Shown here piece by piece: positions 825 to 61,098 of a stretch of 64,000 bases of DNA. This DNA is from a virus. The notes below the pieces were generated by a model. That model made no database searches, was not told the origin of the DNA, and saw only the letters and a list, made by a program, of their open reading frames with translations. The translations under genes and the position numbers were made by a program. The stretch spans positions 64,001 through 128,000 of IMG/VR virus record IMGVR_UViG_3300045988_166055. One strand, 5' to 3'. Numbering within the stretch: the first letter of the stretch is position 1; each line of letters begins with the position of its first letter.

Positions 825-1607
825 ATGGCGCTATCTGAAAAGATACAGCTTCTAGGCGCGGGGCTGTATAAAAACATTCCAGATGAACTTACACTTAAGA
901 ACATTCCAACAGCATCTGAATTAGATTATGTAGGGAGTGAAGATTTTGATCAAACAATGATCGACAAAATCCTTCCTTCAGCAATTGAAGAGAAAATCGA
1001 TACAAAAGAACTTCTCGAAATTGATTACCAGTGGATTTGCAGATGCTTAAGACTGCTAAACTACGGACCATATTTCACAACAAATTCTATCTTCTGTGAT
1101 AAATGCGGACAGATGTACGGAGAATACAGAGTAAACTTAACATCTGTAGAATGCAAACCACTTCCAGAAAACTTCAAGAATAAACTTAAGATCAAGGCCG
1201 ATGAATTTCTTGATTTTAACGGTGATGTAGAGCTACATCTGCTGACGATGCAGCAAGCATTAAATTCATATAAAGACAAACAATTTATCAGTCCTACTGG
1301 AAAACCTAACAGAGAGCTTTCAAGAATCTGCTACATGATTACATCAATGGGAGATGAAAAGAACATGACTCCTATTGATGTAAGAGTATCAATTAAGAAT
1401 AAGCTATCGTCCGCTGATTACATTGTCCTAAAGGACAGAGTAGCAGAGCTTACAGACTACGGTCTAAGAGCTGGAGGTAGCTGCAATTGTCCTAGATGCG
1501 GAAGCAATGGGGCAGCATTTTTAGCTCTGGTTGACGAAAGATTTTTTCGCCCAACCTTGGACGATCTACGGCAATGGAAGCACGATAGAAGTAAACGGCC
1601 AGAATAA
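825..1607 (+). CDS. tail assembly chaperone-like protein (G-like), zinc-ribbon containing
   Basis: Sits immediately upstream of the tape measure gene; its 3' end overlaps an extension ORF in another frame; CDKCG...CPRCG cysteine pairs. Confidence 0.6.
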   Translation: MALSEKIQLLGAGLYKNIPDELTLKNIPTASELDYVGSEDFDQTMIDKILPSAIEEKIDTKELLEIDYQWICRCLRLLNYGPYFTTNSIFCDKCGQMYGEYRVNLTSVECKPLPENFKNKLKIKADEFLDFNGDVELHLLTMQQALNSYKDKQFISPTGKPNRELSRICYMITSMGDEKNMTPIDVRVSIKNKLSSADYIVLKDRVAELTDYGLRAGGSCNCPRCGSNGAAFLALVDERFFRPTLDDLRQWKHDRSKRPE

Positions 1608-22783: not shown

Positions 22784-24151
22784 ATGATCACTAAGCGTTC
22801 CACTGCTCCTGCCCGCAGACCTGTCACTGCCGGTCAGAGCATTACTTCTGGCGTTCGTAATCGTAACGCTTCCGCTATTAAGTCCTCAGTAAATCTTACT
22901 CCGTCACAGAGAATGTTCGCTAATCAGATCGCTCGTAACTGTAGAAAGCCTGGCGCTATCATGGCAGCTACAAATACATCAAACATCATGGCTCGTCCCG
23001 ACTTCCTGGACCTGCTGCCTGTGTTTGTTCAGAAGCTGATTGTAACTGACATCTTCGGTTCCGTTGCGATGCGTTCTCGTCAGCAGCTGGTTCCTTACTT
23101 CAAGTTCATTGCTGAGAACACTAAGGGAGAGACCAAGTCTGGTACCGTTATGTCTTCTCCGTTTGCTAACCGCCAGGGCGTTGATCCTAACTTTACTGGT
23201 CGGGTAGTAAAGAACGAAGAGGTTGACGGTCAGCTGATGTATACTCCTGTTCTGCCTGGCACTGTTACCATTAAGAGCGCTCAGGGAGTATTCGTTGATA
23301 AGGGTGACGGCAAGCTGTACAAAGCCGATACTCAGGAAGAATCAGGAACCATTGATTATGCTACCGGCGAGATTGGCACCCTGACAGGTGACATGACTGC
23401 TACCTACCAGTACGACAATGAGACTGTTGGTCCTGACACCAATGGCCAGTACGGTGCTAAGATGGGTAAGGGTTACCTGCAGCTTGATGAGTTCAATCTG
23501 GTCGCTGAGGCCAAGGAGCTCGCTTGCTACTGGAGTATCTATTCTGCATTTGCTGCTCAGCAAGAATATGGTTCCAACATCGCTGACATGGCCAAGGAGG
23601 CCGCTGTTGGTGAGATCACTGCTGAAATCAACACCTCTTGCCTGGATATGCTGATGCAAGCAGCTTCTTACAAGCCTGCTTTCAACTGGGATGCTTCTCC
23701 TGTTCTGTCTGGTGCAGTTGTTCCTTCTGATTACCTGAACATGTTCAAGCTGAAGCTGGGTCAGGCTGCTGCTTCTATCTACCAGCAGACTCGCATGACT
23801 CGCCCGAACCGTCTAGTGGTAGGTACTACCGCAGCTGAGTACATCGGCATGATCAACGGCTTCAAGGGTGACAACATCGATGACACTGTTGGTCCTTACA
23901 AGTTCGGTACTCTTGACCAGTTCGAGATATATGTCAATCCTTCTTACGATCCTGATTCTTGGGTCATGTGCTGCAAGAGTAACGACATTAGAAAGAACAC
24001 GGCTCTGTTCGGCGAGTATATGCCTATCACCAACACTGATGTGGTTGGTCTGGCTAACATGTCCGCGCAGCAAGGCTATGCCACAATGTACGCAAGCAAG
24101 GTCGTCAACCCTGCCACTTGCGTGAAGGGCAAGATCCTAGGCACTTTCTAA
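22784..24151 (+). CDS. major capsid protein (candidate)
   Basis: 455 aa; strong SD TAGGAGAG; marked shift to CTG/AAG/GGT/CGT codons (high-expression style); strong terminator downstream; follows the scaffold-like gene. Confidence 0.65.
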   Translation: MITKRSTAPARRPVTAGQSITSGVRNRNASAIKSSVNLTPSQRMFANQIARNCRKPGAIMAATNTSNIMARPDFLDLLPVFVQKLIVTDIFGSVAMRSRQQLVPYFKFIAENTKGETKSGTVMSSPFANRQGVDPNFTGRVVKNEEVDGQLMYTPVLPGTVTIKSAQGVFVDKGDGKLYKADTQEESGTIDYATGEIGTLTGDMTATYQYDNETVGPDTNGQYGAKMGKGYLQLDEFNLVAEAKELACYWSIYSAFAAQQEYGSNIADMAKEAAVGEITAEINTSCLDMLMQAASYKPAFNWDASPVLSGAVVPSDYLNMFKLKLGQAAASIYQQTRMTRPNRLVVGTTAAEYIGMINGFKGDNIDDTVGPYKFGTLDQFEIYVNPSYDPDSWVMCCKSNDIRKNTALFGEYMPITNTDVVGLANMSAQQGYATMYASKVVNPATCVKGKILGTF

Positions 24152-26144: not shown

Positions 26145-27032
26145 ATGACAAGAGAAGAACAACTTTCTACTATTAAGCAGCTTCGTGATCTTACAGCAGA
26201 TCTTGAATGGCAGCAGGATACACTTGATGAACTTGAATGGAGCAGCTACGATCCTCCTGTAAAGCCTGTTTTGAAAACATATACCAAGCCTGCATACCCT
26301 GAGCCAGAGTCTTCCATGAGGTTCAACTGGAAGGTTTTCAACTACTTTTGGGCTATTACAGCTCTTATTTTTCTTGGCATCTGTAAGCTGTTTGATACAC
26401 CTATTTTTCTGCTTCTTCACGTAGCTATTACCATTGGATACGTCATGAAGTATCGTGAAATGAAAAAGGCTGATGTTGAGAAAGTTAGAAACTCTGCTGA
26501 ATTCAAAGCTAAGTTGAAGCAAATTGATGATGACTACGACAGTCTGGTTTATGCAGCTAAAGCGAAATACGAAAAGGATATGGATGAATGGAAGAATGAT
26601 TTGATGCCTAGATACGAGATCGACAAGGTCAAGTACGAAGCAAAGAAACGTGAAGATATTGCTAACTGCAAAGCCGCTATCACTCATGACAAGCGAGAAA
26701 TTTCTCGTATTTATGGTGAGACTAAAATCCTTCCTACTGCTTACAGGTCTCTTCCTATTCTAGAATACATTGAAGAATTCATGGCTTCTTCTAACTTCGA
26801 TGTAAATCGAGCAATTGAGAACTACGACAGAGAACAGCAGAGATGCATTGATGAAAAGAGGTTCCAGCAGGAGGTTTATTACAATCAGCTTCAGGAGCAA
26901 ATGGTTGATGCTCAGGAAAGAGCAAACAGCATTGCAGATAGAGCTAGACGCGATGCTAACAGAGCAGATTTTGTTGCAGCTGTTCAGCGTCATAACACTA
27001 ATAAGCATTTGAAGAGGATGGCTGAGAAGTAA
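26145..27032 (+). CDS. membrane-anchored coiled-coil protein
   Basis: Hydrophobic span FNYFWAITALIFLGICKLF...LLLHVAITIGYV, then a charged helical region. Confidence 0.55.
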   Translation: MTREEQLSTIKQLRDLTADLEWQQDTLDELEWSSYDPPVKPVLKTYTKPAYPEPESSMRFNWKVFNYFWAITALIFLGICKLFDTPIFLLLHVAITIGYVMKYREMKKADVEKVRNSAEFKAKLKQIDDDYDSLVYAAKAKYEKDMDEWKNDLMPRYEIDKVKYEAKKREDIANCKAAITHDKREISRIYGETKILPTAYRSLPILEYIEEFMASSNFDVNRAIENYDREQQRCIDEKRFQQEVYYNQLQEQMVDAQERANSIADRARRDANRADFVAAVQRHNTNKHLKRMAEK

Positions 27033-33194: not shown

Positions 33195-33323
33195 ATGGAC
33201 GAAAAGATTATTGATCAAATCAATCCAGAAACAACTGCTCCTGTGATTGAGAATGTTGATGACCTTCCCGAAAGTGCTGCTCAAGAGTTCACTGGAGGTA
33301 AGGGAGAAGAGGAGGCTGAGTAA
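33195..33323 (+). CDS. small acidic ORF (42 aa) immediately upstream of the endolysin
   Basis: ATG after TGGAGGT SD; its TAA ends 1 nt before the endolysin ATG; below the track size cutoff. Confidence 0.4.
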   Translation: MDEKIIDQINPETTAPVIENVDDLPESAAQEFTGGKGEEEAE

Positions 33324-33324
33324 T

Positions 33325-34563
33325 ATGCCTAATTACACAAATAGCTCATTAGTTAACTACACTAAAATCAGCCCTATGCAGAGTGGAAGCAGAGTAAATT
33401 CCAGATACAATCCTTCTGGTAAGATTACTGTTATCACTATTCATCATATGGCTGGTAACCTTTCTGTAGAAACTTGTGGAAATGTATTTCAGACAAGAGA
33501 AGCATCCGCGAACTACGGTATTGGTTCTGATGGTCGTGTAGGAATGTATGTAGAAGAAAAGGATAGAGCTTGGACTTCTTCCAGTCCTTCAAACGATTAT
33601 AAGGCAGTTACAATCGAGGTAGCTAACTGTGCATATGGTGATCCTTGGCCTGTTTCTTCTGCTGCATATGAGAAGCTGATCCTCCTTTGCGCAGATATTT
33701 GCAAACGTAATGGAATTGATAAGCTGAACTACACTGGAGACACAACAGGTAACCTTACAATGCACTGCTGGTTTGCTGCTACTGCATGCCCTGGTCCTTA
33801 TCTAAAGGCAAGATTCAGCGATATCGCAAATAGAGTAAATGCTATCTTAGATGCTTCAAAGCCTGATCCGACTCCTGTACCGTCAGGTAATCTAGCTGTT
33901 GGAGATGTAGTTACCTTCGTAGGTGGTTCCCATTATTACAGCTCAGATGCGGCTTCTCCTGCATCTACAGATCTAAAGCCTGGTAAGGCTAAAGTTACAG
34001 CTATTTACAAGAGCGGAAAGCATCCATATCACCTTATTCACACAGATAGCTCAACTTCTGTATATGGTTGGGTAGATGCATCAGCAATTAAGGAGCTGGA
34101 AGAGAAGCCGTCTACTCCGTCAACCGGTTCTTATGATGTTGGAGATGTTGTAAATTTCAAGGGTGGTAATCACTATTCAAGCGCAAATGCTTCTTCTCCT
34201 GCATCTACCGGCCTAAAGGCAGGTCCTGCAAAGATCACGTATAAGGCTAACGGAGCACATCCTTATCACCTTGTTCATACAGATAATCAAACAAGCGTAT
34301 ATGGTTGGGTTGATGCTTCTCAGATCGAAGGCGCTTCTTCAGCACCTTCTGCCCCTTCTGTTGAAACATTCAATAAGGGAGATAAAGTAAAGATCAAGTT
34401 GTCTACAACCAGATGGGTTGGCGGTGCGTCAATTCCTTCTTGGGTTAAGAATAGTCAGCTTTACATTTGTGGATTCAGAGATAGTGATCCTTGCGTCACA
34501 ATCAATTCTGATCTATCAGGTGTAACAGGTGTTCTTAAGACTTCCGATCTTTATCACAACTAA
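33325..34563 (+). CDS. endolysin: N-acetylmuramoyl-L-alanine amidase plus repeated SH3-like wall-binding modules
   Basis: ATG after GAGGAGG; ITIHHMAG...NYGIGSDG...AVTIEVAN...TACPGPYL; two repeats of about 69 aa plus a third related module. Confidence 0.85.
   Translation: MPNYTNSSLVNYTKISPMQSGSRVNSRYNPSGKITVITIHHMAGNLSVETCGNVFQTREASANYGIGSDGRVGMYVEEKDRAWTSSSPSNDYKAVTIEVANCAYGDPWPVSSAAYEKLILLCADICKRNGIDKLNYTGDTTGNLTMHCWFAATACPGPYLKARFSDIANRVNAILDASKPDPTPVPSGNLAVGDVVTFVGGSHYYSSDAASPASTDLKPGKAKVTAIYKSGKHPYHLIHTDSSTSVYGWVDASAIKELEEKPSTPSTGSYDVGDVVNFKGGNHYSSANASSPASTGLKAGPAKITYKANGAHPYHLVHTDNQTSVYGWVDASQIEGASSAPSAPSVETFNKGDKVKIKLSTTRWVGGASIPSWVKNSQLYICGFRDSDPCVTINSDLSGVTGVLKTSDLYHN
33886..34332 (+). 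repeat. tandem coding repeat (two wall-binding modules)
   Basis: 33886-34095 and 34126-34332 encode G..VGDVV.F.GG.HY.S..ASSPAST.LK.G.AK.T......HPYHL.HTD..TSVYGWVDAS.I. Confidence 0.8.
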
Positions 34564-50885: not shown

Positions 50886-51341
50886 ATGGGTCTAGAAATT
50901 GGTAAATTTGTTGATGTAGAAGTAATTCGTATCATTGACAAGGGAGCAGTTGTTCGCCTAGAGGATGGACATACAGAGCTCATTCATCTATCTAAAGTTT
51001 CTAACAAATTTGTTAGAGACGTAAACGACTATCTTGCTGTAGGAGATAGACTGAAAGCAGAAGTAGTCAAAGGAACATACAAGGAAACTGAACTGTCAAT
51101 CAAGTATCTAGATCTGTCTCCTAAAAAGAAGGAAGAAAAAACTAACCAAAAGCCCGTTGAAAATGCTAAGCCTCAGAAATCATATAATCAAGCTAAAAAG
51201 GAGTCATTTCCTCAGATGAGCCTCGATGACATGATAAAGCAAAGCAACAAGCAGTTCGACGATAAGTTCAGAGGTAAGCGAGAGTTCACAAAGAAGAACA
51301 AGAACTATCGAAAGAAAAAAAGACCTTACGAAGATGATTGA
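50886..51341 (+). CDS. S1-domain RNA-binding protein with a basic tail
   Basis: GKFVDVEVIRIIDKGAVVRLEDGHTELIHLSKVSNKFVRDVNDYLAVGDRLKAEVV. Confidence 0.7.
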   Translation: MGLEIGKFVDVEVIRIIDKGAVVRLEDGHTELIHLSKVSNKFVRDVNDYLAVGDRLKAEVVKGTYKETELSIKYLDLSPKKKEEKTNQKPVENAKPQKSYNQAKKESFPQMSLDDMIKQSNKQFDDKFRGKREFTKKNKNYRKKKRPYEDD

Positions 51342-51528
51342 GACCATATTTCTTCCTGACGGAAGCATAAGGTATACAAATAGCTGTTCAAATAAATTGT
51401 ACACAAGTTATGCTGATGCTAAAGTAAATGAGGAAGAAATGAAGCAAATAGATAATAGGCTGAGGAGAAAATCCTCAGCCAATATCTATATAAATAAAAC
51501 GTTTGTAAAGAAAACAAGAGGTGTATGA
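51334..51528 (+). CDS. hypothetical protein (64 aa)
   Basis: Overlapping starts and stops on both sides. Confidence 0.45.
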   Translation: MIETIFLPDGSIRYTNSCSNKLYTSYADAKVNEEEMKQIDNRLRRKSSANIYINKTFVKKTRGV

Positions 51529-52772
51529 TGTTTAATAAGTATCCTGAATTACGAATTGCATATGAAAAAGAATGCAGACGACAGGAACAAAACATAGAGT
51601 TCATTGCTTCAGAAAATTTTGTAAGTATTGATATATTATCAGCCCTAGGAAGTGTATTTACAAACAAATATAGCGAAGGGTATCCAAAGTACAGAACTGA
51701 AGATAAGGGAAACAAAGGAAGATACTACGGAGGGTGTCAATACATTGACGAAGTAGAAGATTTCTGTATTGAGCAATGGAAGAAAGTATTTCATTTAGAT
51801 CATAAGATATCTGGATTGAATAAAACAAGTTATCATGTCAATGTTCAGCCTCATTCTGGTTCGCAAGCTAATATGGCTTCGTACATGAGTGTACTTAATC
51901 CTGGTGACACTATTCTGTCAATGAACCTAAACAACGGAGGGCATCTTACACACGGATCCTCTGTTAATTTCTCTGGAAAACTTTATAATGTTGTTTTCTA
52001 TGATGTAGATGAAAGAGGATACATTGATTATCTTGACATTGAAAAGAAGATAAAAGAGTTCAAACCTAAACTTGTTTTAGCAGGAGCAAGTGCCTATTCT
52101 AGAACAATTGATTTTGAAAGGATATATAACATAATAAATATATGTTCGACTCATGATTACAGGCCGTATTTCATGGTAGATATGAGTCATATAGCAGGAT
52201 TAGTTGCTACAGGTAACCATCCTTCTCCCTTTGGTTATGCAGATATTATAACTACCACAACACACAAGACATTAAGAGGGCCTAGAGGTGGTATAATATT
52301 TTGTGTAAATGACCTTGCAAAGAAAGTAGATAGTTCAGTATTTCCTGGTTGTCAAGGTGGTCCACTTCAGAATGTAATTCTTGCAAAGGCAGTATGCGCT
52401 TGTGAAGATTGCCAACCGGAATATTACAAATACATTGATAAAGTTGTTAGGAACGCAAATGCAATGGCCACCAGGTTCAAACAGCTTGGTTACGAAATAG
52501 TAACAGGTGGAACCGATAATCACATGTTCTTGATTGACTTGTCTAAAACTCATCCTAATTTATCCGGTAGAAATGTTCAGGAATATTTAGACAAATTTAA
52601 TATAACCGTTAATAAGAATTGTGTACCAAATGAAAAACGAGGTCCTCAGCAAGCTTCAGGAATACGGATTGGTACACCTGCAATGACAACTAAGGGCTGG
52701 TCAGAAACGGATTTCATAATTTGCGCTGAGAAGATTGACGAGCTAATTAAACAGCTAAATAAGAATCGTTAA
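51525..52772 (+). CDS. glyA: serine hydroxymethyltransferase
   Basis: IASENFVS, SEGYP..RYYGGC, VQPHSGSQAN, TTTTHKTLRGPRGG (PLP lysine motif). Confidence 0.9.
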   Translation: MMFNKYPELRIAYEKECRRQEQNIEFIASENFVSIDILSALGSVFTNKYSEGYPKYRTEDKGNKGRYYGGCQYIDEVEDFCIEQWKKVFHLDHKISGLNKTSYHVNVQPHSGSQANMASYMSVLNPGDTILSMNLNNGGHLTHGSSVNFSGKLYNVVFYDVDERGYIDYLDIEKKIKEFKPKLVLAGASAYSRTIDFERIYNIINICSTHDYRPYFMVDMSHIAGLVATGNHPSPFGYADIITTTTHKTLRGPRGGIIFCVNDLAKKVDSSVFPGCQGGPLQNVILAKAVCACEDCQPEYYKYIDKVVRNANAMATRFKQLGYEIVTGGTDNHMFLIDLSKTHPNLSGRNVQEYLDKFNITVNKNCVPNEKRGPQQASGIRIGTPAMTTKGWSETDFIICAEKIDELIKQLNKNR

Positions 52773-53193: not shown

Positions 53194-53268
53194 TGGGGCG
53201 TAGCCAAGCGGAAAGGCAGTAGACTTTGACTCTATTATTCGCTGGTTCGAATCCAGCCGTCCCAGCCA
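53194..53268 (+). tRNA. tRNA-Gln (anticodon UUG)
   Basis: Acceptor TGGGGCG/CGTCCCA, loop CT-TTG-AC, T arm GCTGG-TTCGAAT-CCAGC, encoded G-CCA. Confidence 0.85.
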
Positions 53269-53469
53269 GTGGTCAATTAGCTATTGACTGATGTCAGAGT
53301 AATCAGCTAACCTGACAAAGAATGAAAATGATCGCTGAAAACTGCTACTAAAGGATTCGTCCTCATTATTCACCTTAAGATAGTGGCTAGTTATTTGTGG
53401 ATTACTAGTTGATGATGATTAGCGTGACAATCTAAGCGGTAAGCTGATGAATAGTTAGGAGGAACATAA

Positions 53470-53853
53470 ATGAAAATTCTTCGTCATCAAAACATAGAAG
53501 GAATGGCGAGAGTTGGATTTACTTCAGATAGCTACGAAGTATACGTCAATACAGACGATGGTGGAAAAATTCCTCACTTTCATTACAGACTGAAAAATGA
53601 TTGGAATAAGTTTCACACATGTATAAAAATTGAAAGTCCTGAATATTTTCATCATACAGGTAAAGAAAGCGTGTTGAATTCTAAACAAATTAGATCGCTC
53701 ATTCGATTTCTTAAGTCATCTGTATCTCTATCACAATATAGTGAAAAATTTTCTAACAACTTTGAATTGATTATTTTTCTATGGAACATAAACAATTCGG
53801 ATGTTATAGTTGATCCTGAAACAAAAATTCCTGATTACTATCAACTAAATTAA
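53470..53853 (+). CDS. hypothetical protein (127 aa)
   Basis: SD TAGGAGG; GGKIPHFHYRL motif. Confidence 0.6.
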   Translation: MKILRHQNIEGMARVGFTSDSYEVYVNTDDGGKIPHFHYRLKNDWNKFHTCIKIESPEYFHHTGKESVLNSKQIRSLIRFLKSSVSLSQYSEKFSNNFELIIFLWNINNSDVIVDPETKIPDYYQLN

Positions 53854-53855
53854 AT

Positions 53856-53877
53856 CCAATCGTTATTAAGTATGTAG
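53856..53877 (+). promoter_or_regulatory. class A box
   Basis: CCAATCGTTATTAAGTATGTAG. Confidence 0.5.
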
Positions 53878-54040
53878 CAGCTAGTAAGCTGTAACATAAG
53901 GAGCTCACAATCCTGCCGAAATATCTTCTAGAATATTTCCGCACAATATAGAAAAGAGTGGGTGGCAAGGAATATGCCAGGAATGATTCTAAGCTTGACA
54001 TGCAAGTACAACCGGGTGAGAAACTAGTCCCGGTAAATAT

Positions 54041-54115
54041 TGTCAATTAGTTTATGAGGTAAAACATTGTAGCTTAAGATACAATAAGTTGGTTCAATTC
54101 CAACATTGACAGCCA
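54041..54115 (+). tRNA. aberrant tRNA-like gene with an 8-nt anticodon loop (UAA or UUA)
   Basis: Perfect acceptor TGTCAAT/ATTGACA + G-CCA; D arm GTTT-ATGAGGTA-AAAC; T arm GTTGG-TTCAATT-CCAAC; anticodon stem TTGTA/TACAA closing GCTTAAGA; 3-nt variable region. Confidence 0.55.
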
Positions 54116-54234
54116 TCGGTCATTGTTGACTGACGCCCACCGAATCTGCTATCTTAGATCATCAGTAGCAGATGCAGTTTTCTAGTTCTCTTTTCTGTTC
54201 ATCGAACGTGTTGAAAATAAAGAGAATAATATAT

Positions 54235-54326
54235 GGCGCGATACCGAAGTGGTCATAACGGAGCGGTCTTGAAAACCGTAGGCGGTGATGAGCCGTCCGT
54301 GGGTTCGAATCCCACTCGCGCCGCCA
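54235..54326 (+). tRNA. tRNA-Ser (anticodon UGA), class II
   Basis: Acceptor GGCGCGA/TCGCGCC, loop CT-TGA-AA, long variable arm, T arm GTGGG-TTCGAAT-CCCAC, G-CCA. Confidence 0.85.
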
Positions 54327-54549
54327 TGCCTTTTCATTCAGCTGACATTAGATTGTCAAATTGATGAAAGTGAAACCAACTATGCTGGCAGGTTGTCGAC
54401 GGGTTGAAGAGCCGTAGAGTCTAAACTATTCTCCTCTATTCTAGAAAGAGTCGGAAAGCTAGGCCCCGTAGTAGCAGCCGAAAAGTATCCTAAAACGATA
54501 GGCGTTAAAAAATGTTTTATAGGTGACAGCCCGGAAAGACGGGCATTCT

Positions 54550-54645
54550 CATCTGCTAGAACAATGGTAGTTCAGATAAGTTTATGCTTATTCCGTGTCT
54601 GTTGGTCAATCAGACATTATCTCGGTTCGAATCCGAGGCAGGTGA
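54550..54645 (+). tRNA. atypical class-II-like tRNA look-alike 1 (UAU-type loop, no encoded CCA)
   Basis: Acceptor CATCTGC/GCAGGTG; D arm GAAC-AATGGTA-GTTC; hairpin ATAAG-TTTATG-CTTAT (6-nt loop); extra arm GTCTG-TTGGTCAAT-CAGAC; T arm CTCGG-TTCGAAT-CCGAG. Confidence 0.4.
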
Positions 54646-54649
54646 CAAA

Positions 54650-54977
54650 TGTCTACTGGTCACCATCTACATACGACAATCAAAACTGCATAGGAGATGG
54701 AATTGGCAACGGCAGCCATGATAAGTGAAGCGATGTTCGAGTCATCAACCTGATCCTGTTCGACTCAGGCAGGGCATGGTGCAAAACTTATCAAGAGGAA
54801 CTAAGTACCTGCCTCGCTTCGGATAGCAAAGAAGGCGTTAGTAGTAATCGAAAAACTACTCGCGGTTACAGGGAGGGAGCGGCGTTATAGGTAAACCTCC
54901 TGGGTGTTCTGCTATCGTGCACCTTAGAAAGGCGAAGCTTTTCAGTTAGGACTAATCCGGCCAGATAGCAAAAATAT
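54650..54977 (+). ncRNA. ORF-free, G+C-rich structured spacer (candidate stable RNA)
   Basis: No ORF in the track; several local hairpins; lies between the tRNA look-alike and tRNA-Gly. Confidence 0.3.
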
Positions 54978-55051
54978 GCGGATATAGTGTAACGGTAACA
55001 TGCGACTCTTCCAAAGTCGTGTTGCGGGTTCGAGTCCCGTTATCCGCTCCA
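54978..55051 (+). tRNA. tRNA-Gly (anticodon UCC)
   Basis: Acceptor GCGGATA/TATCCGC, loop CT-TCC-AA, T arm GCGGG-TTCGAGT-CCCGT, T-CCA. Confidence 0.85.
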
Positions 55052-55069
55052 TAGAAGGAGGTGACAAAT

Positions 55070-55405
55070 ATGTCTGTTTATAAATGCCCAGTTTGCGGAG
55101 GAAGAGGATTTGTTACTTGCGGATTCTATTCAAGTCAAACATACGATGGAAGCTCGGTAACTAATTACAATTCAACTGAAGTTTGTAGAAGCTGTAATGG
55201 TAGAGGAATTATATTTGATGAATTCTTAGGATCAACTTCAAATAGTATTCATAGATATTGCAGTAATTGTGAAATGAACGATGGTATGGTGTATCCATCG
55301 TATCCTCCTAAATACAGATGTACTTTATCAGGTAATTTCAATGAAGGAACGCATACATGTAATCTAGATGATATTTTGTCAAAGGAAAATAACCAATCTG
55401 AATAA
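55070..55405 (+). CDS. DnaJ-type CxxCxGxG zinc-finger protein
   Basis: ATG 55070 after GAAGGAGG (3 nt after the tRNA-Gly CCA); CPVCGGRG ... CRSCNGRG. Confidence 0.6.
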   Translation: MSVYKCPVCGGRGFVTCGFYSSQTYDGSSVTNYNSTEVCRSCNGRGIIFDEFLGSTSNSIHRYCSNCEMNDGMVYPSYPPKYRCTLSGNFNEGTHTCNLDDILSKENNQSE

Positions 55406-55449
55406 GTTGATAATCGGTAGGGCGCTGCGGTGTGCTTGACCGTGTTCTC

Positions 55450-55483
55450 CCGTCCGGGTGTTGGCGCATCCGGACGGCTTTTT
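55450..55483 (+). terminator. rho-independent terminator
   Basis: CCGTCCGG-12 nt-CCGGACGG then CTTTTT. Confidence 0.75.
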
Positions 55484-55518
55484 CTATCTAGTAAATTATT
55501 AACGAATGATTAAGACTA

Positions 55519-55553
55519 TTGACTTTTCATAAGAATCGTTATATAATATGTAC
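55519..55553 (+). promoter_or_regulatory. class A box with a canonical -35
   Basis: TTGACT (55519-55524), 17 nt spacer containing AAGAATCGTTA, then TATAAT (55542-55547). Confidence 0.65.
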
Positions 55554-55600
55554 ATAAGTCAGCCAACACATCAAAAAGCTTCAAAGCTAAGGAGGAAAAA

Positions 55601-55915
55601 ATGAACGGATACATTATCAAAGCTACATACCTCACAGGTCCGCATAAAGGAGCATCTTATTTCCTTCAAAAAGGCGGATATGTAACATCCGATCCCGATG
55701 ACCAGTGGTCAGATAACTGCTACAAGACAGAAAACATCTGCAAGTCAATTTGCATGAAGCTTGAAAGAAGCAACATGGCTGAAAACGTAGTAGAGAAAAG
55801 AACAAGAGAGTATAGATCTCAAAAAGGGTACAATGTATCCGATTTCATGATCTACGAATTGATGAAATATGAACCGTATTTTGTCAAAACTGTTCACAAT
55901 TCGGATGTTTTCTAA
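55601..55915 (+). CDS. hypothetical protein (104 aa)
   Basis: SD AAGGAGG. Confidence 0.6.
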   Translation: MNGYIIKATYLTGPHKGASYFLQKGGYVTSDPDDQWSDNCYKTENICKSICMKLERSNMAENVVEKRTREYRSQKGYNVSDFMIYELMKYEPYFVKTVHNSDVF

Positions 55916-55928
55916 GGAGGTATTCACA

Positions 55929-56201
55929 ATGATCATCAATTCTCGTTTAGAAGCAAGGAAGTCTGTTAAGGATAACTTCGAGCTCGCTTGTAAATTTCAA
56001 ATGACAGTCATCAATGTCTTTCATAAGGACTTGATTACAGGTGAAATTGTTCTCACTGATATGTTCAGCCACGATAGTATTCAAGCCGTTACATGGAGAG
56101 ACGATTACCTTGAATCGTTAAAGAAGCTAGAGGTACCTTACATTTGCTATGTGGGAGATCATTTCACAGAATCATCTGGCTACTTAGACTTTGAGGAGTG
56201 A
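55929..56201 (+). CDS. hypothetical protein (90 aa)
   Basis: ATG 55929 after AAGGAGG; the track start at 55869 is less likely. Confidence 0.55.
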   Translation: MIINSRLEARKSVKDNFELACKFQMTVINVFHKDLITGEIVLTDMFSHDSIQAVTWRDDYLESLKKLEVPYICYVGDHFTESSGYLDFEE

Positions 56202-56206
56202 CAATC

Positions 56207-56491
56207 ATGGATAGAAAAGTTTTTGAAGCTTTATCTTCTGCAAATAAATTGATCAACCATCAACTTGATTGTCAAAAGGCCGCTATTCCTGATATACAAA
56301 AAGCTATTGAAGAAACAGCGAAAGCTTTCAATATCACTTACAAACAAGGCCGCAGTGAAGGATTTGAATCCGAAACTATTGATGATATAGCAGAAATTTA
56401 CGGATATCTAATCGGAGCTAAAGGTGCAATTGAAGCGGTCATATCTAAGTTAGAAGGAGCAAAGAATATGATGTCTAATTTTGATAAATGA
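56207..56491 (+). CDS. hypothetical protein (94 aa)
   Basis: ATG 56207 after GAGGAG. Confidence 0.55.
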   Translation: MDRKVFEALSSANKLINHQLDCQKAAIPDIQKAIEETAKAFNITYKQGRSEGFESETIDDIAEIYGYLIGAKGAIEAVISKLEGAKNMMSNFDK

Positions 56492-56613
56492 ATGAATACA
56501 TGAAACGAATAATCAAGAAATCGGCTGTAATCGGGATGGCTAAAGAACCGTCAAGAGGTGTTTTTAGATCGTTGATGGAGAAGTCCTGTCATTTCCTTTT
56601 TACAATGACATAA
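56488..56613 (+). CDS. 41-aa ORF, probably the 5' part of a frameshifted gene
   Basis: ATGA coupling to the upstream stop; overlaps the open frame that continues into 56640-56894. Confidence 0.35.
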   Translation: MNEYMKRIIKKSAVIGMAKEPSRGVFRSLMEKSCHFLFTMT

Positions 56614-56894
56614 CTTCTCCCGGCGTTGCTAAATCCGGATTGACTTACAACCACAAAAATTTGTGGCCTGATGTTAAACCTAAAGGATGCAATAAACCGT
56701 ATAATTACTACCCTCGTGGACGAGTAGAGCTAGGAAAGAAAAATTCTATCATATATGTAAATCCTAACTTCGATAAATATGATTTAGCAGAAGTTAGAAA
56801 GGATTTTGGACTTATCAATGAGCCTAAAGTAGTATTTGATAATTCAGATCATTACAAATGTTATCTAGATGACGGATGGAAGCCAGATAAATAA
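56601..56894 (+). CDS. 3' part of the same gene (frame open from 56568; no SD or ATG of its own)
   Basis: The only in-frame start is TTG 56640, with no SD; a -1 shift on the T5 run 56597-56601 joins it to 56488-56613. Confidence 0.45.
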   Translation, partial: YNDITSPGVAKSGLTYNHKNLWPDVKPKGCNKPYNYYPRGRVELGKKNSIIYVNPNFDKYDLAEVRKDFGLINEPKVVFDNSDHYKCYLDDGWKPDK

Positions 56895-56915
56895 CAATCG
56901 TTATATAAAATGTAG
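56894..56915 (+). promoter_or_regulatory. class A box upstream of tRNA-Leu
   Basis: ACAATCGTTATATAAAATGTAG. Confidence 0.5.
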
Positions 56916-56926
56916 TAATCAAATTT

Positions 56927-57014
56927 GCTGGTGTGGTGGAACTGGTAAGACACTTTAGACTTAAAATCTAACGCATTAAGTTGTGTACGGGTTCGAATCC
57001 CGTCACCAGCACCA
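56927..57014 (+). tRNA. tRNA-Leu (anticodon UAA), class II
   Basis: Acceptor GCTGGTG/CACCAGC, stem TTAGA/TCTAA, loop CT-TAA-AA, long variable arm, T arm ACGGG-TTCGAAT-CCCGT, A-CCA. Confidence 0.85.
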
Positions 57015-58043
57015 TTGTCACAGTCATCTTGATTGTGTGGATTGAAATAAGGGCATACGGAGAAAGTGGTCGTATAAACGTTGTGGTGATCAAGCAATGC
57101 CTGAAGTATCAACGTGACAGATCGGAGAGACGATCAAAAGCGAGGTTCGATTCAGGAAGGTTACAAAATGTATTCCATTTAGAACCGGGTTACGCTGTCT
57201 AAGTGGTTGCCCCTGATGGTCCGGTACGATTCCGGAGGGAATGATTGCTAGAATCATTCCTAACGCTTAGACCTATCTTTTCTATATAGCTGGCCACTAT
57301 TCTGCCAATCGACGGATTGGATGAGGTTTCGACCATCAGATAAACGGCTGAAAATGTATAGGCGTTTACTGCTTAACGAAATGAAGCGGGCTGTTGTTCA
57401 TCTCAGGATAAAAAGATGGCGTGCCAGCCGACATTGTTAGCCTATTTCGGTAGGTATTCGGTTAGAATAAGGAATGCTACTTATTCGGGAGCTAAATTGA
57501 ATGTGCATCCTTCTGAAGTTGGAGTCTCGAAGATAACGGTTCTGAGAGATAGATGTTAAGTTAGTACTTAGCATTGAGGTTAAACTTGTCAGCTCCTAAA
57601 AGTTAATATCGAGCAAACTCACCATAAAGTGTTCTAGCTGCTAATCTAAAAGAGAATGAGATGATTAGAAGGATTGAGCGAATCTAGATGCTCGTTATTA
57701 TATTTGCCATCTGCTGGTCCTACACAGCAGTGAGGATGGTAGGACATCCAATAACCAAGCAATCGGTGGAGATAGCGCCGGACACCTCGCCTGTTGAGGA
57801 GGGAATTTGAACAAAAAGGTAAGATATGTTCACACCAGAACATAAGGGCATATGGAATGGTGAAAATACTTACTAAACCAATCTGCTAGGTTATCTGAGA
57901 GAATGTCAGGATTTGAGGCAGATAAGTGATAGAATGCAGTACTCTCATTTGACTTTGAGAAGAACCTTTCATATTATCACTTAATGAGTTCTATGCGTTG
58001 CAAACACTTCTCTCATTCGGGATAGAAAAGAAGGGTTAGACAT
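57015..58043 (+). ncRNA. large (about 1 kb) ORF-free, highly structured RNA candidate
   Basis: Abuts tRNA-Leu and tRNA-Glu; nested helices (57213-57221 with 57331-57339) around hairpins 57238-57260 and 57305-57320; H-type pseudoknot at 57711-57745. Confidence 0.4.
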
Positions 58044-58118
58044 GGCGCCTTGGTCAAGTGGTTAAGACACGGCCCTTTCACGGCTGTAACATGGGTTCGA
58101 GTCCCGTAGGCGTCACCA
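58044..58118 (+). tRNA. tRNA-Glu (anticodon UUC)
   Basis: Acceptor GGCGCCT/AGGCGTC, loop CT-TTC-AC, T arm ATGGG-TTCGAGT-CCCGT, A-CCA. Confidence 0.85.
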
Positions 58119-58209
58119 TCACATCCTATAGGATGTGTTAAGTGTGATATATGGTAACAGATTCCGACCTAAGCGCACGGGTCTTCTAGAGGCCTTCGGA
58201 ATCGAATAT

Positions 58210-58285
58210 CCGGGTGTAGCTCAGATGGTAGAGCGCGTGGTTTGGGACCACGATGCCGCTGGTTCGAATCCAGTCACTCGGACCA
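58210..58285 (+). tRNA. tRNA-Pro (anticodon UGG)
   Basis: Acceptor CCGGGTG/CACTCGG, stem CGTGG/CCACG, loop TT-TGG-GA, A-CCA. Confidence 0.85.
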
Positions 58286-58304
58286 TTTTTTCATTCAATT
58301 TTTA

Positions 58305-58326
58305 TTCATCGTTATATAACATGTAG
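58305..58326 (+). promoter_or_regulatory. class A box
   Basis: TTCATCGTTATATAACATGTAG. Confidence 0.45.
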
Positions 58327-58426
58327 GAGGCATCCATCTCGGATACAATACTACAACGTAGATAGAGAAAACATTTTCTCTGTAATGAGAGGTAAGATAC
58401 TCTTGAAGTCGCCTAAAAAAATAAAT

Positions 58427-58449
58427 TAGCATCGTTATATATCATGTAG
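58427..58449 (+). promoter_or_regulatory. class A box upstream of tRNA-Thr
   Basis: TAGCATCGTTATATATCATGTAG. Confidence 0.45.
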
Positions 58450-58459
58450 CATAAAATAT

Positions 58460-58535
58460 GCTGGATTAGCTCAGTTGGCAGAGCGCGTGATTTGTAATCT
58501 CGAGGTCAAGGGTTCGAGTCCCTTATCCAGCTCCA
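58460..58535 (+). tRNA. tRNA-Thr (anticodon UGU)
   Basis: Acceptor GCTGGAT/ATCCAGC, loop TT-TGT-AA, T arm AAGGG-TTCGAGT-CCCTT, T-CCA. Confidence 0.85.
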
Positions 58536-58627
58536 TTGCCACAATTTATTAGATTGTGTGGATTGAAACCATCTCATCTCCTTCCTGATCCAGTTTCTGG
58601 TCTGGATAAACAAAACCGGGTAAATAT

Positions 58628-58722
58628 CCTGCCTTAGCATAACGGTAGTGCAACCGGCCTATACCCGGCATAAGGCTCTAGATTGGGGCAAGATCTCGGT
58701 TCGAATCCGAGGGGCAGGACCA
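58628..58722 (+). tRNA. atypical class-II-like tRNA look-alike 2 (UAU-type loop)
   Basis: Acceptor CCTGCCT/GGGCAGG + A-CCA; D arm GCAT-AACGGTA-GTGC; hairpin CCGG-CCTATAC-CCGG; extra arm GCTC-TAGATTG-GGGC; T arm identical to look-alike 1. Confidence 0.45.
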
Positions 58723-58916
58723 TTAGCGCCCATACAAGCTTAAAAGTATGGTGAGGAATCAAGTTACTCAAGTTAGGTCAGCTTGACATCCAACAGTAAG
58801 GACCTACGACAGGTGAGAATGACGGATTAGTCCTTTCTTGAATAAACAGAACCTGACCCATTGGCGCCGAGGGTGAACGCTGCTTGAAGGTAAAGAAAGG
58901 CAATAAAACTTTACAT

Positions 58917-58993
58917 GGGAGCATAGCTCAGTTGGTTAGAGCGCATGACTGTTAATCATGATGTCGAAGGTTCAAGTCCTTCTGTTCCCGCCA
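58917..58993 (+). tRNA. tRNA-Asn (anticodon GUU)
   Basis: Acceptor GGGAGCA/TGTTCCC, stem CATGA/TCATG, loop CT-GTT-AA, G-CCA. Confidence 0.85.
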
Positions 58994-59540
58994 GCGCCTA
59001 TATCAGTCTAGGTCTTGAAAGGATATAGAGACCAATGAATTATCTTTTTAGAAAGGTGATTTATCTGATGAAAAGAGATCATCAACTCTCGGCGAATTAG
59101 AACTTGACGAATTTGTCTTTTGACAAAAAGAAGCAGCAGGTTCGTCTCTGCGCTTAATCTACTGAACTGCAATGTTGATGTAAGCGGTAATTAGGTTCCC
59201 AAACCAATTCAGGGAGATTAAGAAAAAGTTTGCTTATTTAGTAGAAAGAGGGTTGGAGGGGCACAGCAAGTAGAATAAAAGGACCTATCCAGAATGCCAG
59301 GATTGACACCATAAAATGCTGTCAATGAGAGCATCAGTATTAGACCACGGTGAAGCGATGTGATGATGATAGGAATTGGGACTATCTAATCTCATCTAAT
59401 GCCGATATACATCTGGTTGTGTAGGTAGGCAACAAATTTGAAAGCTATAACAGGATGTGCTAAGGAGTAGAAGTAATAACCTCTGTCTACTGTGTATTTC
59501 TGCTAAATAAGTTCAACTTTTTTATTAAGGGGTTTGAAAA
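58994..59540 (+). ncRNA. ORF-free structured spacer of about 550 nt (candidate stable RNA)
   Basis: No ORF in the track on either strand; starts at the tRNA-Asn 3' end. Confidence 0.3.
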
Positions 59541-59756
59541 ATGAAAACAATCACTTTTATCTGTTATGATAAATATCCAAAAACAACAAAAAGGTCTCAC
59601 ATTTTTAAGAAGCGTTTTTCTTCGTTAGCAGATGTTGCTAAATTCTTGAAAGTTTCAAATAAAATCTATTTGCAAAATCCGATGAACGAATTTTCAAAAG
59701 ACGAACTAAGAATTCTTTCAATGAAAGTTCGATCGTTAAATAAAATGAAGGTGTAG
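59541..59756 (+). CDS. doubtful small basic ORF (71 aa) running into tRNA-Lys
   Basis: SD-like AAGGGG; its last 10 nt overlap the tRNA-Lys 5' end. Confidence 0.3.
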   Translation: MKTITFICYDKYPKTTKRSHIFKKRFSSLADVAKFLKVSNKIYLQNPMNEFSKDELRILSMKVRSLNKMKV

Positions 59757-59822
59757 CTCAGTCGGTAGAGCACCTGCCTTTTAAGCAGGGTGTCGGGAGT
59801 TCGAATCTCCTCACCTTCACCA
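59747..59822 (+). tRNA. tRNA-Lys (anticodon UUU)
   Basis: Acceptor GAAGGTG/CACCTTC, stem CCTGC/GCAGG, loop CT-TTT-AA, A-CCA. Confidence 0.85.
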
Positions 59823-59828
59823 AAATAT

Positions 59829-59913
59829 GCACCTGTGGTGGAACTGGCAGACACGCTTGACTTAGGATCAAGTGCCTTCAGGTTTAAGGGTTCGAGTCCC
59901 TTCAGGTGCACCA
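59829..59913 (+). tRNA. tRNA-Leu (anticodon UAG), class II
   Basis: Acceptor GCACCTG/CAGGTGC, stem CTTGA/TCAAG, loop CT-TAG-GA, long variable arm, A-CCA. Confidence 0.85.
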
Positions 59914-59918
59914 TATAT

Positions 59919-59995
59919 GGAGGATTAGCTCAGCTGGTTAGAGCGCTTGCTTTACACGCAAGAAGTCGCAAGTTCGAATCTTGCATTCTCCACCA
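59919..59995 (+). tRNA. tRNA-Val (anticodon UAC)
   Basis: Acceptor GGAGGAT/ATTCTCC, stem CTTGC/GCAAG, loop TT-TAC-AC, A-CCA. Confidence 0.85.
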
Positions 59996-60001
59996 TTATT
60001 T

Positions 60002-60078
60002 GGCCAAGTAGTTCAGTTGGTTAGAACGCCAGCCTGTCACGCTGGAGGTCACGGGTTCGAACCCCGTCTTGGTCGCCA
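60002..60078 (+). tRNA. tRNA-Asp (anticodon GUC)
   Basis: Acceptor GGCCAAG/CTTGGTC, stem CCAGC/GCTGG, loop CT-GTC-AC, G-CCA. Confidence 0.85.
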
Positions 60079-60244
60079 TTGTTGGTTTTACTATTTTATC
60101 AATGTCAGAACGGGGCGAGTCCGTTCAAGTCGCTCAAATCGGGTTGGCCACCAGGAGAGTCAGATTAAAATGGGTTGAGGCGGAGAGTTGGAAAGCCTAG
60201 TAGCTACATTAGGCATGCATAGTGTAGCTACCTCAAAAAAATAA

Positions 60245-60319
60245 GGGTCCGTATTTCAATGGGAGAAAGCTTCCTTTGCACGGAAGAAGTTGCGTGTTCG
60301 AGTCACGTCGGATCCACCA
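60245..60319 (+). tRNA. tRNA-Ala (anticodon UGC)
   Basis: Acceptor GGGTCCG/CGGATCC with a G3:U70 pair, loop TT-TGC-AC, A-CCA. Confidence 0.85.
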
Positions 60320-60440
60320 TTTGAGACTTCAGACAAGTTGGTTAGAATGTCTGATTAAACGACATACAATGAGACGATACCAAGACTTTAGTTCGTTACA
60401 GAGCGGTGACTGAATGTCAAATCCCTTATGTCATTTATCT

Positions 60441-60517
60441 GGGCCTTTAGCTCAGTTGGTTAGAGCATCCGGCTCATAACCGGATCGTCCCGGGTTCGAA
60501 TCCCCGAAGGCCCACCA
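60441..60517 (+). tRNA. tRNA with CAU anticodon (elongator Met or Ile2)
   Basis: Acceptor GGGCCTT/AAGGCCC (G1:C72, so not an initiator), loop CT-CAT-AA, one T-stem mismatch, A-CCA. Confidence 0.75.
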
Positions 60518-60672
60518 TAATTGGTACAACACGACTGTAACGGCTCCCGCGGTTTAGAGTTGTATCCCGTTTCTTAGTTGAAGCGTGTAGTGTCAAGAGA
60601 GCCTACCAGACGAGCCATATGGGCACCACCTAGCGGTGAAAAGATATGTGGGACGATCGTCAATTATTATAT

Positions 60673-60749
60673 GCCTCAGTAGCTCAGTTGGATAGAGCAA
60701 CTTCCTTCTAAGCAGTAGGCCACAGGTTCAAGTCCTGTTTGAGGTGCCA
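60673..60749 (+). tRNA. tRNA-Arg (anticodon UCU)
   Basis: Acceptor GCCTCAG/TTGAGGT (two G:U pairs), loop CT-TCT-AA, T arm ACAGG-TTCAAGT-CCTGT, G-CCA. Confidence 0.75.
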
Positions 60750-60823
60750 GAAAGCACATTAAATAACGTGGAATAAAACTGGAGGTTGTGATGGGACGTT
60801 GAGCCTCCTTTACAAAACAATAA

Positions 60824-60892
60824 GATGCTTTACGCCAGTTGGTAGACGACTCTTGTACAGAGAAGACGCTGGTTCGAATACAGCAAGCATCA
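60824..60892 (+). pseudogene. degenerate tRNA-like element (GUA-type loop)
   Basis: Perfect acceptor GATGCTT/AAGCATC but a 3-bp anticodon stem (CTC-TTGTACA-GAG), mismatches in the D and T stems, no CCA. Confidence 0.35.
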
Positions 60893-61098
60893 AAAGCTGC
60901 TCTGATTGGGTCCGTGCTTGATACTAAGTTGCAGGAACATAAAGGCCTGCACGCTAATCTTCATCACCCAAAGAAGAAAAAGGACAGCAGTAAAAAATCT
61001 GTCAAAGATCAGATAAGACAGAAACTGCATCGAGCAAGTAGAGATAGCGCTGTCTTGAAAGCTCAAAAATATCCTATCTGCAGTAGGATATTAAATCT

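Follow-up and report, generated by a model that had tools for sequence, protein, structure and literature searches.

A conserved five-arm tRNA gene with anticodon UAU and a GAU-containing extra loop in phage tRNA clusters

The gene at positions 58,628 to 58,722 of the window (the whole 64,000-nucleotide stretch of viral DNA analysed here) is a real, conserved and covarying tRNA gene under structural constraint. Its product has the anticodon UAU and carries a fifth arm whose loop contains GAU. A diverged five-arm paralog lies in the same tRNA island; we call the paralog copy 1 and the gene under study copy 2. Copy 2 is probably a functional phage tRNA which would be charged with isoleucine and decode AUA independently of TilS. 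Judged from its sequence, the best reading is that it works like the bacterial tRNA-Ile(UAU) decoders of AUA, with one arm added. The original prediction had called it a tRNA look-alike. This label does not suit a covarying tRNA gene with an invariant UAU in a tRNA cluster, and three GenBank records of the family say tRNA-Ile.

All the elements that had been listed for copy 2, namely the acceptor stem, the A-CCA end, the D arm, the anticodon hairpin and the extra arm, are present in their places (Table 1). Divided into its parts, the gene reads CCTGCCT-TA-GCAT-AACGGTA-GTGC-A-A-CCGG-CCTATAC-CCGG-C-ATAAG-GCTC-TAGATTG-GGGC-AAGAT-CTCGG-TTCGAAT-CCGAG-GGGCAGG-A-CCA. ARAGORN reports a tRNA-Ile with anticodon tat and exactly the same boundaries. 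The Rfam tRNA model (RF00005) gives 44.7 bits, which is above its gathering score of 29, and the family model (R1) gives 113.3 bits. A15 of the D loop pairs with U48 (58694). The anticodon is flanked by C32 and C33 on its 5′ side and by A37 and C38 on its 3′ side. As to identity elements, A73 and C29:G41 are present. The pair 4:69 is G:C in copy 2 and C:G in most family members, while 12:23 is A:U in copy 2 and U:A in four family members. A scan for promoters and terminators gave signals no better than chance.

Table 1. Positions of copy 2, its parts and related features in the window
Feature	Position	Strand	Description
tRNA island containing copy 2	53194-60895	+	17 ARAGORN tRNAs, one strand, nearly all U34
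Copy 1, diverged five-arm paralog	54550-54648	+	without CCA; closed anticodon hairpin
Copy 2, five-arm tRNA(UAU)	58628-58722	+	95 nt, encoded CCA included
Acceptor stem CCTGCCT / GGGCAGG	58628-58634 / 58712-58718	+	7 bp; U7.G66 wobble
D arm GCAT-AACGGTA-GTGC	58637-58651	+	type-I style: 4-bp stem, 7-nt loop
Anticodon arm	58653-58669	+	A27.C43 mismatch and 4-bp stem CCGG/CCGG
Anticodon hairpin CCGG-CCTATAC-CCGG	58654-58668	+	C at position 33
Anticodon TAT (UAU)	58660-58662	+	in 7-nt loop CCTATAC (58658-58664)
Variable region	58670-58694	+	25 nt
Extra (variable) arm GCTC-TAGATTG-GGGC	58675-58689	+	loop 58679-58685; GAT 58681-58683
T arm CTCGG-TTCGAAT-CCGAG	58695-58711	+	5-bp stem
A73 and CCA end	58719 and 58720-58722	+	both encoded
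tRNA(CAU), tRNA-Ile2-like, called Met	60441-60517	+	C4:G69, C5:G68, loop CUCAUAA

The structural constraint is seen in two alignments. With 17 sequences, 100% of the cells are paired and changes on both sides occur in 14 of the 25 pairs, which is matched by none of 500 shuffles. With 29 distinct homologs, 99.3% of the cells are paired and 19 of the 25 pairs change on both sides, again matched by 0 of 500 shuffles; this larger alignment was fitted to the structure model and is biased toward the structure, and the 17-sequence MAFFT alignment agrees with it. Among the 29 sequences, both-side changes are found in all seven pairs of the acceptor stem, four of five in the T stem and two of four in each of the D and anticodon stems. 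The extra arm of about 25 nt with its GCTC/GGGC stem, as originally described, is real, and three of its four stem pairs covary. As a control, shifting the 3′ partners by one to three columns lets the pairing fall to 28-44%. The Levitt pair A15:U48 is replaced by G15:C48 in two lineages (L007 and L053/L061), which argues for a normal L-shaped core. Compensatory changes in the anticodon stem are A28:U42 in contig L079 and CUUGG/CCAAG in L085, and in many members the anticodon stem has all 5 bp. The open 27:43 position of copy 2 is not alarming; 4-bp anticodon stems open at the top are common among bacterial tRNAs (PMC13092985). All family members have a 7-bp acceptor stem and a 5-bp T stem, and A73 is invariant.

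For the anticodon we used a pattern in which all seven loop bases were unconstrained, giving 23 viral and 27 metagenome matches. UAU is present in every family member found this way, that is in the 23 viral and in 26 of the 27 metagenome sequences. The anticodon loops of the family are UUUAUAC (the commonest), CUUAUAC, CCUAUAC (the window) and UUUAUGC, and most members have U33. Because the loops vary in this way, C33 is a derived state in some lineages and not a family hallmark. The C at position 33 that had been pointed out in copy 2 is real; as a defining oddity, however, it amounts to a lineage variant. It is maintained, since the window sequence recurs identically in three other contigs from independent samples (L014, L054 and L064), and L079, which also has C33, shows the compensatory replacement of C28:G42 by A28:U42. 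Elongator tRNAs seldom have C33, which could make copy 2 perform less well on the ribosome. We also considered whether the extra hairpin is the true anticodon arm and rejected it. The UAU hairpin keeps the canonical five-position stem and 7-nt loop, mostly with U33, whereas the stem of the extra hairpin varies from 3 to 7 bp and the second position of its loop is mostly A. Therefore UAU is taken as the decoding anticodon.

The loop of the fifth arm is itself under selection. A search for a stem-NNGAUNN-stem element was made in 51 distinct sequences, which had been found without constraining the extra loop, and in shuffled controls. GAU stands at loop positions 3-5 in 48 of the 51. In 42, NNGAUNN is enclosed by a stem of 3 bp or more, while shuffled extra-arm regions pass in 1.5%; in six further sequences GAU holds the same positions in a loop of 8-9 nt, and the remaining three have GAA or GAC instead. 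The loop is CAGAUUA in 20 sequences, CAGAUAA in 12 and UAGAUUG, the form of the window, in four. UUGAUAA, CUGAUUA and UCGAUUG occur once each, and three sequences have other loops containing GAU. The stem around the loop turns over freely in sequence, as the loop does not: GCUC/GGGC, UCAG/CUGA, GCAC/GUGC, UCCC/GGGA, CCUC/GAGG and CCAA/UUGG are all found. Anticodon loops of tRNA-Ile(GAU) at the same loci are CUGAUAA (L071) and UUGAUAA (L005 and others), and the extra loop has the form pyrimidine, N, G, A, U, A/U, purine, with mostly A instead of U33 at the second position. By this comparison it is thus a look-alike of the Ile(GAU) anticodon loop, which suggests that the conserved GAU loop may be an anticodon-arm mimic, possibly for IleRS. 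Pairing between the extra loop and the T loop was also considered; T-loop variants show no covariation with the extra loop, and this idea was dropped. We found no description in the literature of a fifth arm in a phage tRNA-Ile(UAU), and a fifth arm copying an ordinary Ile anticodon loop seems to be undescribed.

The five-arm tRNA(UAU) family was found at over 100 loci from viruses or metagenomes and is also present in cultured phages of Lactobacillaceae. Pattern scans with the D arm and the anticodon stem find it in 22-23 IMG/VR contigs, and 26 of 27 metagenome pattern matches are family members. Identical or near-identical copies lie on large human-gut contigs in metagenomes. By blastn, homologs are found in the Lactobacillus phages LpeD and Lpa804, where the genes are unannotated. 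The Lpa804 copy as query leads on to the L. plantarum phages Semele, Bacchae, Bromius, Iacchus and Dionysus, the L. brevis phages ENFP1 and 3-521 and the temperate L. sakei phage TMW 1.1393 P1. In GenBank the members of Semele, ENFP1 and 3-521 are annotated as tRNA-Ile, each of 91 nt. Looser patterns with only the anticodon-loop context fixed (n = 2) yield many more and far more divergent members, of 90-95 nt, and ARAGORN calls all those examined tRNA-Ile(tat). At 85% identity, the 64 distinct sequences collected fall into 30 clusters. Among 185,579 species-representative genomes the strict core pattern matched only six times, never in a tRNA-like sequence; this does not mean absence from bacteria, because the member in the temperate L. 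sakei phage has different stems. An origin from tRNA-Gln was considered and rejected: the sole non-family match of one pattern is a tRNA-Gln(CUG) whose resemblance comes from the pattern itself, and the tRNA-Gln of the window does not resemble copy 2.

Four-arm relatives exist as well. Among viral loci with the same anticodon-loop pattern, 72 (at least 22 clusters) have five-arm genes and 30 (about four lineages) have four-arm genes. Bromius has an ordinary 75-nt type-I tRNA-Ile(UAU) whose acceptor stem, ACUCGUA, is the same as that of the five-arm gene of Lpa804, and therefore the four-arm and five-arm forms appear interchangeable. The case for copy 2 had been said to fail if relatives carry an ordinary tRNA at this position and copy 2 is merely its decayed version. 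Such an ordinary tRNA is indeed found, but the five-arm form is not its decayed version, because all helices are kept by compensatory changes.

ATA specifies isoleucine in the window phage. In 30 long ORFs it accounts for 327 of 13,615 codons, which is 35% of the Ile codons; host bacteria typically use AUA rarely. For SHMT the comparison covered 15 ATA codons and 10 homologs from viral contigs, leaving out homolog positions that are themselves encoded by ATA. The ATA codons of the window align to I in 65%, V in 18% and L in 10%, its ATT and ATC codons to I in 61%, and its Leu codons to L in 70% and I in 4%. Where ATA differs in six close relatives, it is replaced by ATC (39), ATT (27), GTN (19) and CTA or TTA (8), so that 66 of 99 changes are to ATC or ATT; these counts are of cells and are not independent events. 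CTA swaps almost solely with other Leu codons among the close relatives. The genes of the phage are thus written for Ile at AUA. The DNA ligase has about 25% identity to PDB sequences and is too divergent for such a codon test. ATA makes up 1 of 24 Ile codons in the major head gene (22784-24151), 0 of 19 in an unannotated ORF (26145-27032) and 0 of 20 in an endolysin gene (33247-34563). Avoidance of ATA in highly expressed genes, such as the major head gene, suggests that AUA decoding remains limiting.

Copy 1 differs from copy 2 in several respects. It is the top non-self match of the family model in the window (50.9 bits). Its minimum-energy fold (z = -3.97) gives the anticodon arm a 7-bp stem without mismatches, capped by a UUAU tetraloop; the anticodon-loop region reads G-UUUAUG-C and the extra loop is without GAU. 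The T arm is common to both copies, as had been noticed, with 17 identical nucleotides, and the CCUAUAC loop and encoded CCA noted for copy 2 are there and absent from copy 1. The stems of copy 1 are fully complementary and yet entirely unlike the copy 2 stems in their sequences, a hint that shape is under selection, as opposed to simple decay. Copy 1 had no blastn match in phages, and its homologs were recovered by synteny only. It is confined to the nearest relatives (L033, L034, L035 and L038). The sister phages keep copy 2 alone and have an unrelated initiator-like tRNA(CAU) in the slot of copy 1, so the co-occurrence of both copies in related phages, which had been suggested as a check, does not extend to them. 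From its sequence, copy 1 is a lineage-restricted paralog predicted to be unable to decode. The presence of two copies had been taken as an argument against a random pseudogene: copy 2 is indeed no pseudogene by its covariation, but the two-copy argument is weak, copy 1 being limited to one lineage, without CCA and closed in its anticodon hairpin. Degenerate five-arm paralogs adjoining the functional gene are also seen in Semele (L081 3010-3101, tRNA-Tyr in GenBank) and Bromius (L082 3007-3097, unannotated). Their anticodon loop has shrunk to 5 nt and their extra loop is without GAU; the tRNA-Tyr label is probably an artefact.

We infer that copy 2 is expressed, charged by IleRS and served by its extra arm as follows. 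It would be cotranscribed with adjoining island tRNAs and then trimmed to the encoded CCA. It would fold into the normal L-shape with one added hairpin between the anticodon and T arms, and would most likely be charged with isoleucine by the host IleRS. Charged copy 2 could then supply AUA, over a third (35%) of the phage's Ile codons. Bacteria normally need the essential TilS for AUA, since IleRS relies on the wobble base to distinguish tRNA-Ile from tRNA-Met and copes badly with U34; AT-rich phages use AUA heavily. With a UAU anticodon of the unmodified type, the host lysidine enzyme TilS would not be needed. The extra arm would be a protein-recognition element, most plausibly aiding the Ile charging of a U34 tRNA. 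The tRNA-Ile2-like CAU tRNA of the island is the ordinary tRNA of the window closest to copy 2, with the same CCGG/CCGG anticodon stem. The phage may thus have two AUA decoders, one dependent on TilS and one not, so copy 2 may be redundant as AUA decoder here. The tRNA-Ile(UAU) of L. plantarum is reportedly expressed and not charged with Ile, in work of Tomikawa et al. from 2018 (J Biochem), so it is not certain that UAU tRNAs become charged in these hosts. The IleRS of E. coli is 360-fold worse on a UAU tRNA than on the lysidine tRNA (PMC3575796). The typical bacterial IleRS reads the wobble base, and some Firmicute enzymes carry an Arg that may accept U34/UAU (PMC3575796). This makes Ile charging by a Firmicute host plausible.

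How the fifth arm might contribute can be given only tentatively. As a possible though rather doubtful reading, it would imitate, within the tRNA itself, the anticodon arm of tRNA-Ile(GAU). The host IleRS, or some other protein or RNA that reads Ile anticodons, would be shown GAU, and Ile charging would succeed although UAU makes a poor IleRS substrate. Two Ile anticodon motifs linked on one molecule speak for it, and so does the 35-kb temperate phage, where no candidate partner gene is seen beside the tRNA, so that whatever reads the extra loop would have to come from the host. Against it, class I synthetases approach the tRNA from the side opposite to the variable region, four-arm phage tRNA(UAU) genes exist, and the window has its tRNA-Ile2-like CAU tRNA.

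Other explanations of copy 2 have to be weighed against an Ile-charged AUA decoder. A73 together with a long arm would also fit a tRNA of Leu identity, and copy 2 might be a mis-acylating class-II tRNA, a substrate of LeuRS (or SerRS or TyrRS) that would insert Leu or a different residue at AUA. LeuRS and SerRS ignore the anticodon, and the long extra arm and the invariant A73 would suit them. This is quite improbable in view of the type-I D arm with its 4-bp stem and 7-nt loop, unlike the Leu, Ser and Tyr tRNAs of the same clusters, and of the long unpaired linkers of the extra arm, unlike those of class-II tRNAs. Bromius, moreover, has a type-I tRNA-Ile(UAU) with the acceptor stem of the Lpa804 five-arm form. 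ATA is found where Ile is conserved and is swapped for ATT and ATC, and therefore a Leu-charged decoder would mistranslate 2.4% of the phage codons. There is a precedent in C. elegans, whose class-II UAU tRNAs are charged only with Leu (PMC3333845).

Alternatively, copy 2 could be a tRNA-shaped RNA that does not decode, either a decoy for a tRNA-targeting defence (an anticodon nuclease or a tRNA-Ile toxin) or an IleRS-binding regulator, with its two Ile-like loops as bait. UAU and GAU loops of Ile type on one molecule, C33 in some lineages and the repeated non-decoding paralogs (copy 1, the Semele "tRNA-Tyr" and Bromius L082 3007-3097) would agree with this, and most allo-tRNA(UAU) species have been suggested to be unused in translation (PMC5389517). 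We regard it as unlikely, as the family keeps the 7-nt anticodon loop with UAU and A37 (G37 in a few) and an intact acceptor and CCA end, the AUA position of nearly complete phage tRNA sets is taken by it, ATA is a much-used codon of the phage, and no defence or toxin partner gene is seen adjoining it. That copy 2 is a decayed or chance tRNA-like sequence is scarcely credible and is refuted by the covariation data. Its Rfam score of 44.7 bits compared with 56-75 bits for the neighbours, C33 and the A27.C43 mismatch could be cited for decay; they stand against compensatory substitutions in all helices, one of them in the anticodon stem of the C33 lineage itself (L079), a sequence identical across independent samples, and the frequency of 4-bp anticodon stems open at the top in bacterial tRNAs (PMC13092985).

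The closest known system is the bacterial tRNA-Ile2 with UAU, found in Mycoplasma mobile and as genes in Lactobacillus casei and L. plantarum, which shares with copy 2 the UAU for AUA, A37, A73 and the independence of TilS and lysidine that is predicted for copy 2, and which depends on an IleRS tolerating U34 (PMC3575796). It is a four-arm type-I tRNA, whereas copy 2 is phage-borne, has a fifth arm with a GAU loop, and has C32 and C33. Nematode nev-tRNA-Ile(UAU) combines a long extra arm with UAU as copy 2 does (PMC3333845), but it is eukaryotic, derived from tRNA-Leu and charged with Leu, whereas copy 2 has a type-I D arm, an Ile-mimic extra loop and no particular similarity to the Leu tRNAs of the island. 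Because ATA means Ile in the phage, copy 2 would be unlike nev-tRNA in behaviour. The allo-tRNA(UAU) species of Mukai et al. 2017, also mined from metagenomes, likewise have a long variable arm and UAU (PMC5389517). They have 8/4 or 9/3 acceptor/T stems, Sec-like D arms and Ser identity, and occur in Acidobacteria, Clostridia and Proteobacteria, often linked to toxin-antitoxin genes; the five-arm family lies in phage tRNA clusters and has 7/5 stems, and for this reason copy 2 is not an allo-tRNA. The tRNA-Ile2(CAU) with TilS lysidine serves the same codon AUA, and copy 2 differs from this type-I tRNA, which is TilS-dependent and has C34. Copy 2 does have the long paired variable arm of a class-II tRNA, with a 4-bp stem and 7-nt loop. 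It lacks the class-II D arm (3-bp stem, enlarged loop) and has a type-I D arm and a non-Leu/Ser/Tyr anticodon, and so is no standard class-II tRNA.

Anticodon-arm mimics that bind a synthetase are known from the thrS mRNA operator of E. coli and from viral tRNA-like structures. Like the fifth arm, they present a cognate anticodon-like loop outside the normal anticodon position; they lie in mRNAs or at viral genome ends and serve regulation or replication, whereas the putative mimic of copy 2 lies inside a tRNA with its own, different anticodon. If the mimic reading is true, copy 2 would be a portable, TilS-independent AUA decoder in which the identity signal is split from the decoding triplet. 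The family would then point to a previously unnoticed mode of building tRNA identity. This would bear on synthetase-tRNA recognition, on the escape of phages from host codon bias and tRNA-modification control, and on the engineering of orthogonal AUA decoders. Cultured phage-host pairs with the gene are L. plantarum with LpeD or Lpa804, L. brevis with ENFP1 or 3-521, and L. sakei with TMW 1.1393 P1. Annotation pipelines treat the family unevenly, leaving some genes unannotated, calling others tRNA-Ile and naming the degenerate Semele paralog tRNA-Tyr.

The window genome resembles that of a large tailed phage with about 37% G+C, and its genes include those for a baseplate wedge, a major head protein, a head protease, endolysins, helicases, an NAD ligase and SHMT. 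No close cultured relative was found, helicase identity being at most 30%. The U34 tRNAs of the island match the phage's preference for A-ending codons. In other phages the five-arm gene also lies in tRNA clusters, with the exception of the 35-kb temperate phage, where it stands alone between the RinA activator gene and the terminase genes. In L071, a 150-kb contig with a cluster of about 31 tRNAs, the five-arm tRNA has the only anticodon that reads AUA as encoded; a CAU tRNA is also in the cluster. The same contig has a tRNA with a CUA anticodon of the amber-suppressor type (1001-1077, minus strand), and that phage might recode a stop codon.

Further features lie on the plus strand near copy 2. 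Directly upstream of the island, 50886-52772 encodes an S1-domain RNA-binding protein and a full-length SHMT (Pfam, 458 bits). The tRNA-like gene at 54041-54115 has an 8-nt anticodon loop, GCUUAAGA, which ARAGORN reports as "???" with a 2-base anticodon; it scores 44.2 bits with the Rfam tRNA model and holds the same position in all close relatives (L033-L038). Between tRNA genes, 57217-57390 matches RAGATH-36 of Rfam over its full length (44.7 bits, E about 6e-8, short of the gathering score of 70), with the conserved single-stranded motifs present. The gene at 60824-60895 combines a short tRNA body of Cys type with the Tyr anticodon GUA, a T-stem mismatch and no CCA. Its homologs have GCA (Cys) in L036 and GUA in L054 and L077, which looks like an anticodon switch under way, or decay. 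A long extra arm on a tRNA other than Leu, Ser or Tyr is seen a second time in sister phages (L036 17656-17740, L077 3887-3971 and L071 4439-4524), where an 85-86-nt tRNA of class-II shape has the Thr anticodon UGU and U73; its counterpart in the window is a normal 76-nt tRNA-Thr.
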